From: Planctomycetes bacterium HGW-Planctomycetes-1
GTDB lineage: Bacteria; Planctomycetota; Phycisphaerae; Sedimentisphaerales; UBA12454
Direction of reading: 5' to 3'
Assembly: GCA_002839495.1 (NCBI GenBank)
Contig: PGYD01000003.1
Span: forward strand, 1-58,675
Length of the DNA stretch: 58,675 bases
The notes beneath the pieces were generated by a model. That model did not search any database. It was not told the origin of the DNA and worked only from the letters and a program-made list of their open reading frames with translations. Positions 4,308 to 32,522 of the stretch are shown in pieces (position 1 is the first letter of the stretch; the number at the start of each line of letters is the position of its first letter). The translations under genes and the position numbers were made by a program.

Positions 4308-5102
4308 ATGTCCGAATATAACGCTTTAGACGCAGAATTTATAAGAGCAAATCTGGATACGAGCCGAATCGGCAGAGAAATACTCGTATATAAAAGCACA
4401 TCGAGCACGAATGATATCGCGGCTGAATACGCAAAAGCGGGCGATAAAAATGATGGGCTTGCGGTTTTTGCCGAACACCAGACGGCAGGCAGAGGCAGAC
4501 GGGGCAATCAATGGCTGAGCGGCAAAGGCAAGAGCGTCCTCTGCTCGGTCGTGTTCTTCGAACCGAAAATCGAAGCGGATATGATAACAATCACGGCCGC
4601 TGTCGCCGTTGTTGAGACGATTGATAAAAACGCTAAAATCAAATGGCCGAACGATATTCTGCTCGGCGGCAAAAAGACCGCGGGTATTCTGGTCGAGGCG
4701 TTTACCAAAAATAAGAAAAAATATTTTATAATCGGTATCGGGATAAACTGCCATCAGTCAAAGAAAGACTTTGACGGCGAACTGGCTTCGATAGCGACGA
4801 GTATTGATATCGAAAGCGGGACGGTTTGCGACAGGAACAGAATCGCAAAAAGGCTGCTCGTGAATCTGGAGCATTTTCTGGATATCGCGGTCAAAGACCC
4901 TGACGAGATTGTGGAAAGATGGCGGGCGGCGAGTATGCTGTTCGGAAAACGAATTACCGTCGAGCATAACGGGGCGCAATTTACGGGCAACTGTATCGGC
5001 GTAGAGCCTGCCGAGGGCTTGATAATCCAGCTCGAACGCGGCGGAGTGAGAATGTTTCACGCGGTTTCGACGACAATCGTTAAAAACGGAACGGAGATGT
5101 GA
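4308..5102 (+). CDS. birA: biotin--protein ligase (no N-terminal HTH)
   Basis: STN, QTAGRGRRG, KWPND, KTAGILVE, GIGIN. Confidence 0.94.
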   Translation: MSEYNALDAEFIRANLDTSRIGREILVYKSTSSTNDIAAEYAKAGDKNDGLAVFAEHQTAGRGRRGNQWLSGKGKSVLCSVVFFEPKIEADMITITAAVAVVETIDKNAKIKWPNDILLGGKKTAGILVEAFTKNKKKYFIIGIGINCHQSKKDFDGELASIATSIDIESGTVCDRNRIAKRLLVNLEHFLDIAVKDPDEIVERWRAASMLFGKRITVEHNGAQFTGNCIGVEPAEGLIIQLERGGVRMFHAVSTTIVKNGTEM

Positions 5103-29585: not shown

Positions 29586-30872
29586 ATGGAAATTCAATCG
29601 GTAAAAGGGACAAGAGATTTTTATCCGGAGGATATGGCTAAACGCAATTTTATAGCCGACCTCTGGAAGCAGGTATCGTTGCGCAACGGCTTTTCCGAAT
29701 ATGACGGGCCGATATTCGAGTACCTTGCAATGTACCAACTCAAAAGCGGCGATGAAATCGCGACGCAGCTTTTCGCGTTCGAGGACCGAGGCGAAAGAAA
29801 GCTCGCTATCCGTCCTGAAATTACACCGACTCTTGCCCGTATGGTCAACCAGAGAATCAATACTCTGCCAAGACCTATAAAGTGGTTCTCAGTGCCGAGA
29901 TTGTGCAGGGCGGAGCGTCCGCAAAAAGGCAGACTTAGAGAATTTTTTCAGTGGAATATCGACATCATCGGCGTTGACGATTGCCTTGCGGATGCGGAGG
30001 TTATTTTCTGCTCGGTCGATTACCTGATGCAAACAGGCCTTACGAGCGATGATGTAGTCGTCAGGATTTCGAGCAGAAGGCTTATAGCGGCGATGCTCGA
30101 ATATTTCGGCATAGAAGAAAAGCATCTCGAAAAAGTTTATGGCATTCTTGATAAGAAAAGCAAAATGCCGCAGGAAACCTTCGAAAAAATGCTCGAAGAG
30201 GCAATTTCCGATTCGAATAAGCGTCAAAAAGTGCTGAACCTTATGGCGGTTGAGTCTCTGGTAGAGTTTGAGAGTTTCGCAGGGGCCGACAAAAATGCAA
30301 ACGAGGCGATCGAAGAGCTTAAAAAGCTGTTTAATTATCTTAATATAATGGGTATTTCTGAATTTTGCAGATTCGACATAGGTATTGTCAGGGGGCTTGC
30401 CTATTATACGGGCATAGTTTTCGAGATTTATGACAAATCCGAGCAACTGCGGGCGATTTGCGGCGGCGGCAGGTACGACAACCTGCTTGCGGATTTCGGC
30501 GGACAGAAAATCAGCGCAACCGGTATGGGTATGGGCGATTGTGTTCTCGGGATTGTGCTTGAAGAAAAAGGACTGTTTAAAAATCTTTCGCAAAAAAGCG
30601 GTATAGAATATTTTGTCGCCTTTGCCGAAGAGTCTTTACAGAACGAATCGTTAAAAATTATCGCCAGACTCCGCAGGGCCGGACGCAAGGCAGACTTCAG
30701 TTATAAAGGCGGCTCATTGGGCAAGCAGCTCAAGCAGGCTTCCGCGGTCAATGCGGCGATATGTGTAATAGTCGGCGAGGAATTTACACAGAAAAAACAG
30801 CTTGTAATTAAGGATATGAACAGCGGCAAACAGGATATTATCGCGGTGGAAGATTTCTTCAGCCGACTTTAG
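29586..30872 (+). CDS. hisS: histidine--tRNA ligase
   Basis: KGTRDF, RPEITP, ERPQKGRLREF, VRGLAYYTG, GGGRYD. Confidence 0.97.
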   Translation: MEIQSVKGTRDFYPEDMAKRNFIADLWKQVSLRNGFSEYDGPIFEYLAMYQLKSGDEIATQLFAFEDRGERKLAIRPEITPTLARMVNQRINTLPRPIKWFSVPRLCRAERPQKGRLREFFQWNIDIIGVDDCLADAEVIFCSVDYLMQTGLTSDDVVVRISSRRLIAAMLEYFGIEEKHLEKVYGILDKKSKMPQETFEKMLEEAISDSNKRQKVLNLMAVESLVEFESFAGADKNANEAIEELKKLFNYLNIMGISEFCRFDIGIVRGLAYYTGIVFEIYDKSEQLRAICGGGRYDNLLADFGGQKISATGMGMGDCVLGIVLEEKGLFKNLSQKSGIEYFVAFAEESLQNESLKIIARLRRAGRKADFSYKGGSLGKQLKQASAVNAAICVIVGEEFTQKKQLVIKDMNSGKQDIIAVEDFFSRL

Positions 30873-30881
30873 GAAAAATGG

Positions 30882-31427
30882 ATGGCGCAAATTGCCGGTA
30901 ATCATTATGAAAAGGCATTTGAAAGCTGGCTGAAGGATAACGGGATTCAATATCTCCTTGTTGACCAGCGGAAACGGACGGCGTTTTCGAGGAGCAAAAT
31001 CAAAAGTTTCGACTTCCTTTTTTATCCGCCGAAGGCGGACTCGCCCGATTCGAACGCTTATATAGCGGAGATAAAAGGGCGTAAATTTTCGGGTAAAACT
31101 TTTACCGCTTTTGGAAGTCTGCCGAACTGGGTAACTCTTGACGATGTTAAAGGGCTTGAGAACTGGGTCGAAATATTCGGCGGCCGATATCAGGGGTTAT
31201 TCGTCTTTGCCTACGAGCTTGAGAATATCGATGTAGATACCGACGGCAGAGAAATTTACGAATACCTTGGCAGACGATATGTATTTGCCGCTATTAGGCT
31301 TAGCGATTACAAGAAAGGGGCGGCCAGACGGAGTGAAAAATGGCAAACCGTGCATTTGTCTGCGGAATTTTATAAAAATTGTATTATCGATGCGGACGAA
31401 TTGATTTGCAGAAAGGTTAGATTGTGA
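30882..31427 (+). CDS. HYExAFE family protein (PD-(D/E)xK-like)
   Basis: NHYEKAFE, KSFDF and AEIKGRK motifs. Confidence 0.85.
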   Translation: MAQIAGNHYEKAFESWLKDNGIQYLLVDQRKRTAFSRSKIKSFDFLFYPPKADSPDSNAYIAEIKGRKFSGKTFTAFGSLPNWVTLDDVKGLENWVEIFGGRYQGLFVFAYELENIDVDTDGREIYEYLGRRYVFAAIRLSDYKKGAARRSEKWQTVHLSAEFYKNCIIDADELICRKVRL

Positions 31428-31540
31428 ATCCCGCACCTTCTAAATATTTCAGTGAATAAAACAAGGCACTTAAGGACTTAAAGATTTATATATGGGATAT
31501 AGCGAAGTTAAAAACGAAATTAAAGAAGGTGCGGGATGAA
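31425..31540. mobile_element. 108-bp MITE-like element with 13-bp TIRs and TGAA duplication
   Basis: TGAA-TCCCGCACCTTCT (31429-31441) ... AGAAGGTGCGGGA (31524-31536)-TGAA. Confidence 0.75.
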
Positions 31541-32522
31541 CGACAAGGTCGCACAAATTGCACAAGAAATATTAGACGGCAAAATCATCGACAGGGCCGA
31601 GATAAAATATCTTTTTTCACTTGGCGATGAAGATTTTGATGACCTGCTGTATTGGGCGAATCGAATACGCGAAAAGTTTTTCGGCAAAAAAGTGAAAGTC
31701 TGTTCAATAGTCCCCGGCAGGCTCGGCGGATGCAGTCAGGACTGTAAGTTCTGCGCGCAATCTTCAAGATATGAAACATCGTTTAAGAAAACCGAAACGC
31801 TCAGCGATGAGGAAATTTTAAGAGCCGCAAAAAAGGCCAAAGAAAAAGGCGTGCCGAACTTCGGCATAGTTTACAGCGGCAAAACCATCAGCGAAGAAGA
31901 GCTGGCAAGACTTGAAAAGCTGATTGCGAAAATCAAGAACGAAATCGGTATCGGCGTTTGCGGAGGGTTCGGAATAATCAGTTATGAACAAGCTGCCAGA
32001 TTAAAAAAAGCGGGAATGTCGAGATATAACCATAATCTTGAGACTTCACGGAATCATTTTAAGGATATTGTAACGACACACGATTACGATTCGCGCATCG
32101 AGACGGTAAAAGCGGCCAAAAAGGCCGGACTTGGGTTGTGTACAGGAGGTTTATTTGGTATCGGTGAAGAAGATTGCGATAGAATCGATATGGCGATGGA
32201 ATTGCGAGAACTTGACGTTGATATGGTGCCGATGAATTTTCTGCATCCGATAGCAGGCACACCATTGGGCGAATTGCCGACTATGCAGCCGCGGCAAATT
32301 CTGCAATTGCTCGCTTTATACCGTTTTATTTTGCCGAAGGTTCATATAAAAGCGGCCGGCGGCAGGGCATTAAATCTGCGAGATATGCAAAGCTGGATTT
32401 TTTACGCCGGTGCTACGGCAATAATCAGCGGCGATTATCTTACAACAGCAGGCAGGGCGGTTGAAGATGATTTGCGAATGATAAAAGATTTAGGTCTTGA
32501 GGCGGATGTGGTATGCGGATAA
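31536..32522 (+). CDS. bioB: biotin synthase
   Basis: CSQDCKFCAQS, YNHNLET, GLCTGGLFG, VPMNFL, GDYLTT. Confidence 0.95.
   Translation: MNDKVAQIAQEILDGKIIDRAEIKYLFSLGDEDFDDLLYWANRIREKFFGKKVKVCSIVPGRLGGCSQDCKFCAQSSRYETSFKKTETLSDEEILRAAKKAKEKGVPNFGIVYSGKTISEEELARLEKLIAKIKNEIGIGVCGGFGIISYEQAARLKKAGMSRYNHNLETSRNHFKDIVTTHDYDSRIETVKAAKKAGLGLCTGGLFGIGEEDCDRIDMAMELRELDVDMVPMNFLHPIAGTPLGELPTMQPRQILQLLALYRFILPKVHIKAAGGRALNLRDMQSWIFYAGATAIISGDYLTTAGRAVEDDLRMIKDLGLEADVVCG

Follow-up and report, generated by a model that had tools for sequence, protein, structure and literature searches.

An element between HYExAFE and bioB

The stretch analysed here (the window) comprises 58,675 nucleotides of contig PGYD01000003.1 from Planctomycetes bacterium HGW-Planctomycetes-1, whose 1.83-Mb genome, a 167-contig assembly, is labelled G000 below. 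A HYExAFE-family gene (30882–31427, forward strand; NF038001, E = 7.6e-56) is followed on the same strand by bioB, which encodes a biotin synthase of 328 amino acids (31536–32522; TIGR00433, E = 2.9e-113). At their junction lies a gene-less mini-element of 108 bp (31429–31536, forward strand), which reaches into the bioB start codon and is the subject of this report. It is bounded by perfect 13-bp terminal inverted repeats (TIRs), TCCCGCACCTTCT on the left (31429–31441) and AGAAGGTGCGGGA on the right (31524–31536), and by the tetranucleotide TGAA on either side (31425–31428 and 31537–31540). An earlier examination of the letters alone, hereafter the sequence-only reading, had described precisely this anatomy, and both the sequence and a repeat finder bear it out. 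The latter reports arms of 14 nt (31428–31441 and 31524–31537) that are 100% complementary and 82 nt apart, representing the TIR plus one flanking A/T pair.

The start codon of bioB is shared between the element and its flank. Specifically, the ATG (31536–31538) takes its A from the final base of the element and its TG from the right TGAA copy, which also contributes the first bases of codon 2, and the right TIR carries a Shine–Dalgarno (SD)-like GAAGGTG (31525–31531) that ends four bases ahead of this rebuilt ATG. The left TGAA copy preserves the TGA stop of the HYExAFE gene (31425–31427). An older SD-like sequence, GAAAGG (31412–31417), lies 6 nt (31418–31423) ahead of the old bioB GTG, which now opens an 11-codon leader open reading frame (ORF), VNPAPSKYFSE, that crosses the left arm and stops at TAA (31424–31459, forward strand); this leader had gone unremarked in the sequence-only reading. 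Removal of the element together with one TGAA leaves GAAAGG-N7-GTGAACGAC, and thereby a GTGA overlap of the HYExAFE stop with a GTG start of bioB. Both host genes retain intact reading frames, and the N terminus of BioB aligns with those of its relatives from codon 1.

The empty allele predicted by the sequence-only reading is present in relatives. The bioB locus was retrieved from 28 of 31 related genomes, G000 included, and both genes could be placed in every one. They are neighbours throughout the relatives compared, and at loci L014–L018, L020 and L021 they meet without an insert in the junction GTGAA(C/T), where the TGA stop overlaps the GTG start; the GAAAGG motif also precedes the GTG in empty-site relatives. 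The closest relative, G002 (L010; BioB 93% identical), lacks the insert as well and has the variant GTGAGT. The empty allele is also represented in an unrelated metagenome run (X2), by a contig that joins position 31427 to 31548 through the same eight letters. Genome G009 (BioB 89% identical) carries the same insert in the same place, and its copy is interrupted by a nested mini copy of about 40 bp with flanks TTCG/TTCA. A single sequencing run, which may be the source of the stretch, covers it whole, the shares of 13 other listed runs being at most 0.10; no presence/absence polymorphism of the bioB insert was seen among the contigs of that run.

A family of copies on start codons

The TIR occurs in many copies. 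An 8-nt core has 149 matches in G000 against roughly 31 expected (both strands), and these matches give 46 left–right pairs spaced 20–600 nt apart, numbers that are not accounted for by chance. A looser census counts 55 elements. Because relatives have an empty site and the TIR is repeated genome-wide, insertion is the favoured origin of the bioB element. Several contigs of the assembly start or stop in or beside a family copy (C113:2, C43:128, C100:122, C106:113, C114, C67, C99 and C133:82); family repeats probably break the assembly, so the copy count is a lower bound. The window copy shares only its arms with the other copies, its interior being unique in the genome, and the family consensus of the arms reaches about 22 nt with a 3×3 mismatch.

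The copies stand ahead of genes in a uniform orientation, with the right arm (SD-like GAAGGTG) and its last A rebuilding an SD and an ATG for the host gene, just as the sequence-only reading had described for bioB. Where ATG or GTG directly follows the right core, 33 of 38 cores open ORFs of at least 80 codons (34 with a slightly looser arm), and 26 of the 33 start-abutting proteins match named families (E up to 1e-20) of unrelated housekeeping character. These host families include FtsW, MurG, HemL, dTDP-glucose dehydratase, YchF, PgsA, HldE, RuvC, GpsA and RecR, and further EF-P, HemC, HypB, IspH, TrpB, GcvPB, TsaD, RsmE and LptG.

With the same element ahead of dozens of unrelated genes, a link to biotin control is unsupported, and the role in bioB control that the sequence-only reading had suggested falls away: the arrangement precedes 34 ORFs of unrelated function in this genome. 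The bioB element has the look of selfish DNA and not of a device that controls biotin; the biotin synthase gene itself is undamaged, and the unusual leader ahead of it is no evidence of biotin regulation. The accompanying remark that the biotin-protein ligase lacks a helix-turn-helix (HTH) domain was correct. The sole homologue in the genome, a protein of 264 amino acids outside the element (residues encoded by 4308–5099, gene 4308–5102, forward strand), has no HTH domain in Pfam.

The left flanks of the copies show an SD-like purine run and then (A/G)TGAA. Among 79 TG-type copies the duplicated flank is TGAA in 76, TGAG in 2 and TGTA in 1, and the variant flanks co-vary (TGAG with TGAG, TGTA with TGTA), as those of a true target duplication would. 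Directly ahead of the duplication stands A in 96% of these copies and G in the other 4%; positions −14 to −9 are purine-rich, and there is no other motif. Thus, with A or G ahead of a duplicated TGAA, the family sits on (A/G)TGAA start codons. An ORF map of the genome holds 18,860 TGAA sites, 2,135 of them in ORF-free DNA and 309 at predicted starts. Random placement among tolerable sites would put 12.6% (TGAA) or 26.4% (RTGAA) of copies at starts, whereas 23 of the 24 duplication-bearing copies in the genome adjoin an ORF of at least 80 amino acids (P = 4.6e-20 and P = 8.7e-13, respectively).

Similar copies are found beyond the immediate relatives. A scan of named metagenome-assembled genomes (MAGs), one genome per species, returned at least 106 stretches, and 81 matches within 80 loci were examined. 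Identical 4-nt flanks accompany 59 of the 81, and in 65 of the 81 the frame is open through the whole 400-nt flank; because the pattern itself specified ATGA for the right end, the independent observations here are those of the left flank and of ORF length. Among the matches listed, most carry Planctomycetota, Phycisphaerae or Sedimentisphaerales labels and many belong to Omnitrophota, with a few in bins labelled Patescibacteria, WOR-3 or Deltaproteobacteria.

A sister subfamily was also noticed in G000. Its members are mostly hairpins of 45–50 bp with C...G ends, and their flanks are TTGA instead of TGAA (C3:2679–2723, C25:1302–1349, C53 near 4600, C56:3597–3641, C88 near 3294, C127 near 293 on the reverse strand, and C144:2914–2961). 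The right end reads G followed by TTGAC(A/C/G/T), which resembles a promoter −35 box, and about five of the seven copies have a TA-rich, −10-like hexamer at 16–17 nt, as judged by eye against the usual consensus, without a shuffle control. This subfamily may target −35 boxes in the way the main subfamily targets start codons.

Occupancy and conservation in related genomes

Orthologous sites were compared at six genes, namely bioB, tsaD, hemL, an apgM-like gene, ispH and ruvC, and empty sites exist at the other five as they do at bioB. G000 and the more distant G009 are both occupied at bioB, tsaD, the apgM-like gene, ispH and ruvC, G004 is occupied at tsaD and ispH, and G010 at ispH. All six sites are empty in G002, which comes out consistently as the nearest genome in the gene comparisons. 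Counted by the exact pattern, G000 has 21 copies, G009 16, G004 10, G010 8 and G002 none.

Orthologous copies are unexpectedly similar to each other. Between G000 and G009, the element is identical at 100 of 108 positions at bioB (L009/L011), at 101 of 107 at tsaD and at 110 of 112 at the apgM-like gene (L156/L170), compared with 65 of 114, 80 of 136 and 82 of 119 four-fold sites, respectively, in the adjacent gene. For G009 and G004 at tsaD, the corresponding values are 104 of 108 and 75 of 135 (tsaD loci L154/L160/L163). Overall, orthologous copies are 91–98% identical, and their interiors 89–98%, against 53–69% at four-fold sites of adjacent genes. Examination of G000, G009 and G002 in 60-nt windows around the bioB insert revealed no co-conversion gradient. 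Taken together, conservation and patchiness could reflect host constraint, horizontal spread into cognate sites, or efficient loss without a scar.

The empty sites of G002 (L010, L159, L164, L169, L203 and L208) have a character of their own. The start region is without TGAA at five of the six, four sites have A-to-G changes unique to G002 (GTGAG, ATGGA and, twice, ATGAG), and the tsaD start, ATGAATCCC, resembles the left junction of an element. These features may be traces of lost copies, may confer resistance to renewed insertion, or may be due to chance. ATGAA starts are not avoided genome-wide in G002, where SD+ATGAA and SD+ATGAG number 105/52, compared with 114/56 in G000, 118/62 in G009, 266/102 in G011 and 205/84 in G004. 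Upstream of hemL in G011 and G009 (L165 and L168) lies a different inverted-repeat element of about 120 bp, with ends CCCCGCACCAATATT...AATATTGGTGTGGGG, which is placed in the 5′ untranslated region and off the start codon.

GIY-YIG genes between related ends

The genome has seven small GIY-YIG ORFs, one of which occupies a structure with the layout of a full-length element. At C163 (961–1233), TGAA is followed by inverted ends TCCCGTTAGACC...GGTCTAACGGGA and a second TGAA, and a 90-amino-acid ORF runs from a host ATG in the left flank to a TGA that overlaps the ATG of nusA (Pfam GIY-YIG, E = 3.7e-13). These ends are related to, but different from, those of the window element. The ORF has 1293 homologues (E up to 1e-5); among the best 120, 89 begin with MNP and 102 end in LTG, the residues that are encoded by the element ends. 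The C163 nuclease is 32–38% identical to two other GIY-YIG proteins of the genome, that of C132 among them, and its nearest solved structures are the UPF0213 proteins 1zg2 and 1ywl.

The arm type of the window element can also be followed into this nuclease. At L152 (genome G068), the residues MNPAPSKYS read in frame into the start of the GIY-YIG domain in a decayed copy, and the metagenome protein P0122, from a 506-bp contig and possibly cut, has the same start and then a whole GIY-YIG domain. Two further proteins, P0123 and P0124, are shorter and internally deleted and still end in KEGAG, the residues of the right arm. Because this shared start runs into the GIY-YIG domain, the 11-codon leader of the window copy appears to be the stump of a nuclease ORF. 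Among the copies examined, 25 of 78 have a leader frame open to a TGA that overlaps the rebuilt ATG, and 46 of 79 have lengths that keep the frame (103, 106, 109 or 112 nt), where one third would be expected. In the window copy, at 108 nt, this frame is lost and stops after 11 codons.

[quoted passage not shown] That it is a non-autonomous member of a family of GIY-YIG elements that rebuild the start codons they enter is the reading we prefer and regard as probable.

Several related structures were observed alongside these. The L152 locus (1495–1761) contains two mini copies nested in a decayed longer element, the whole forming one open frame of 88 codons; one nested copy has a TGTA duplication exactly on the internal ATG with which the GIY-YIG domain begins and the other a TGAA duplication. 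A 269-bp copy in G000 (C125:25694–25962, reverse strand) lies ahead of an RsmE-like gene with a TGAG/TGAG duplication, and its ORF, which starts at the old ATG, stays open as far as a TGA that overlaps the new one. Inside, this copy does not resemble GIY-YIG and contains repeats of another kind, similar to those flanking the GIY-YIG gene of C141. Five more small GIY-YIG genes of 89–100 amino acids (C132:3548–3772, C141:895–1110, C133:7243–7455, C123:2656–2865 and C112:5313–5513) are without the ends of the window element, and those of C133 and C123 directly follow tRNA-like sequence.

Predicted stem and proposed mechanism

The bioB leader is predicted to fold strongly. Its minimum free energy is −37.5 kcal/mol, compared with −24.0 ± 3.7 kcal/mol for shuffled sequences (z = −3.68), and in the minimum-free-energy structure the terminal stem consists of the two arms and buries the new SD along with the A and U of the AUG. 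Thus, the 14-bp pairing over the new start signals that the sequence-only reading had drawn is recovered by computation. Identical arms are, however, already required of the ends of a mobile element, so their identity is no sign of regulatory selection. A 230-nt contig from an RNA library holds both arms of some family copy, which is no demonstration that the bioB locus is transcribed. The idea that the insert carries a promoter was dropped, as no sigma-70-type site was found in 30700–31700 against 1.5 expected.

The element inserted into the ancestral GTGA stop/start overlap of HYExAFE and bioB, and the left copy of the duplication keeps the old SD, the old start and the upstream TGA stop. 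In the model that we propose, the arms would pair in the mRNA as a 14-bp stem that covers the new SD and the AUG. The left arm would then be occupied, and the right arm freed, by ribosomes terminating at the TGA of HYExAFE or initiating at the old GTG and reading the leader, so that translation of bioB would stay coupled to translation upstream. That ribosomes unmask the stem in this manner is a model-based suggestion to which we give a little less than an even chance.

In full-length relatives, with about 265 bp between inverted ends, the nuclease ORF is the only gene; it borrows the old start of the host gene and runs to a TGA that overlaps the rebuilt ATG. In the proposed model, this GIY-YIG nuclease would mobilize the gene-less copies in trans. 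Movement might proceed through staggered cuts with TGAA overhangs and a ligase, or through single strands with paired ends. The element would be selfish DNA, tolerated as the repairer of the start that it splits.

A bolder form of this proposal, which we think somewhat doubtful, makes the element a minimal transposon of a new class. At about 265 bp it would be smaller than any listed insertion sequence, and its sole gene would be the nuclease of about 90 amino acids, which would have no start signals of its own. Such a transposon would land on (A/G)TGAA starts, capture the SD and ATG of the host, and return translation through an ATGA overlap and a built-in SD. A restriction-like cut might leave the target and either end of the element with TGAA overhangs of 4 nt, to be sealed by the host ligase. 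Excision without a scar would explain a sister lineage without copies, the C...G/TTGA subfamily would do likewise at promoter −35 boxes, and, in view of how conserved old copies are, the host may since have co-opted them as translational leaders.

Alternative explanations

Several observations count against the preferred reading of a GIY-YIG-based MITE family, or against parts of it. No intact full-length copy with the exact arms of the window element was found: among 301 genomes of the order, long copies (235–265-nt gap) occur in two, both decayed or nested, and the metagenome scan for a full-length copy with these arms gave 0 matches. We know of no strand-transfer chemistry for a GIY-YIG hydrolase, and the 4-bp duplication is unaccounted for. 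The null model for start-codon preference was built on a crude ORF map. Patchy occupancy, with G002 empty and the farther G009 filled, is not easily reconciled with simple vertical descent, and the degree of conservation is not what would be expected of pure junk, so a function at the level of the host or recent horizontal spread is possible. Finally, arm mismatches of the G–U kind do not exceed those of the A–C kind in a manner that signals selection at the RNA level (77 versus 58; arm positions 2–11 were fixed by the search pattern and are therefore uninformative in this test). The stem may thus lack a role in expression, and the proposal in the sequence-only reading that it is a selected regulatory device fares poorly.

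A structured 5′ leader directly ahead of a vitamin-synthesis gene calls to mind a conserved cis-regulatory RNA of bioB, such as a riboswitch or an attenuator, in place of mobile DNA. We count this explanation as refuted. An Rfam scan of 31000–32000 (E up to 1) returned only a plant microRNA family (E = 0.35; 20.7 bits against a gathering score of 85), the structure is absent ahead of bioB in most relatives, the same ends precede 34 unrelated ORFs, and a target duplication is present. That duplication, short and of fixed length, together with TIRs, a size of about 100 bp and many copies, makes up the classical picture of a MITE derived from an ordinary insertion sequence and moved by a DDE transposase, with the GIY-YIG ORFs as passengers or a coincidence. 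Such an origin is very improbable, because the gene found between such ends is an ORF for a GIY-YIG protein of about 90 amino acids whose first and last residues the ends encode. Moreover, no longer element with TCCCGCACC...GGTGCGGGA ends was found in searches covering pairs up to 600 nt apart in G000 and a 235–265-nt gap in 301 genomes, pairs of 0.6–3 kb not being searched.

Homing endonucleases occur among GIY-YIG enzymes, and copies at the same site could be young and horizontally acquired rather than ancestral if the nuclease cuts the empty start site and repair copies the occupied allele. Occupancy that is patchy with respect to relatedness at five sites, with G002 empty throughout and without a single exact-pattern copy, would follow from such spread, as would copies that are far more alike than synonymous sites. 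The flanks, however, show no gradient of raised identity, and those of G000 beside the element resemble G002, not G009. Homing also leaves arrival at new sites and nested copies unexplained, and its basis is only six sites; we judge it unlikely, though deserving of serious consideration. The same contrast between interiors and four-fold sites, the excess of in-frame lengths, the frames open to the TGA overlap and a stem that covers SD and AUG might instead point to a leader that is mobile in origin and now kept by the host for translational control, its masking of bioB and other start sites being relieved by upstream translation or another signal. Against this stand hosts that are unrelated housekeeping genes with no common logic, a window copy that has lost its in-frame leader (108 nt, 11 codons), arms with no G–U excess, and close relatives that thrive without the insert. 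Recent spread accounts equally well for the conservation, and we find an exapted leader of this sort improbable.

Implications

If the reading of a start-rebuilding MITE family is right, mobile DNA can occupy packed operons and the fronts of essential genes harmlessly by supplying a second ribosome-binding site together with half of a start codon and by using the start of the host gene for its nuclease. A GIY-YIG-based element would then join the known kinds of bacterial transposable element, and the Ssn-type nucleases discussed below would gain a possible selfish origin. The puzzling start-site hairpins of uncultured Planctomycetota and Omnitrophota, otherwise mistakable for riboswitches or attenuators, would also be explained. 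For annotation, gene callers often choose the old start, which yields a short false ORF or an extended host protein.

Comparison with known systems

The IS200/IS605 insertion sequences, PATE derivatives and the REP/RAYT system share with the present family a very small size, a fixed target of 4–5 nt, recognition through hairpins, and gene-less derivatives. IS200/IS605 and REP/RAYT use a HUH tyrosine transposase and subterminal hairpins and are not known to make a duplication, whereas the present element has terminal inverted repeats and a co-varying duplication. Mutually pairing ends would be well served by a single-strand mechanism like that of IS200/IS605. The GIY-YIG ORF is the sole one observed between ends of this kind, no separate search for a HUH gene having been made.

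Phage seg and mob genes are free-standing GIY-YIG homing endonuclease genes. In these, too, a small GIY-YIG nuclease is the sole gene of a selfish element, with possible spread into cognate empty sites; they differ in that they are not known to have inverted ends or a target duplication, or to leave gene-less derivatives strewn across unrelated sites by the dozen.

Bacterial MITEs such as Correia/NEMIS, ERIC and the Rickettsia RPE elements resemble the present family in being short, gene-less and numerous, in having TIRs and a duplicated target, and in affecting the genes beside them, and RPEs likewise insert in frame with host ORFs (PMC10969869, in the portions available). As described in those portions, they differ in having a DDE insertion-sequence origin or no known parent, and are not presented there as landing on start codons and rebuilding them. 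The terms 'start codon', 'ribosome', 'Shine' and 'GIY' are all absent from this review, which dates from 2024 and treats prokaryotic MITEs. A literature search (open-access PMC and bioRxiv) turned up no paper that places MITEs or GIY-YIG elements at start codons; the closest it gave was that on the Ssn nucleases, in which 'start codon' does not occur (PMC11893778). A family of GIY-YIG mini-elements that rebuild start codons is therefore apparently undescribed so far.

The Ssn nucleases and their NTS/SRM repeats (Chenal et al. 2025, PMC11893778) offer the nearest comparison. According to the parts of that paper at hand, they are single-domain GIY-YIG proteins of about 94 amino acids (CDD family cd10448) that act as single-strand nucleases, and its authors liken the repeat–gene–repeat layout to an insertion sequence. 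The SRM motif given there has no match in the window at 31380–31580 and none around the C163 element, and three matches flanking the C132 GIY-YIG gene of the same genome. Both systems, as far as those parts describe the Ssn repeats, combine a single-domain GIY-YIG protein of about 90–95 amino acids, flanked by hairpin-capable repeats, with gene-less repeat copies that number in the hundreds per genome. The loop of the Ssn hairpin is reported in the same parts to be replaceable, which fits a stem made by two distant ends. Measured against that partial account, the two ends here together make up one long-range inverted repeat, each serving as an arm and neither being a hairpin of its own. Again unlike Ssn as described in those parts, the present element is placed on start codons and has a TGAA duplication, its ORF makes use of the start of the host gene, and its end rebuilds an SD and an ATG.

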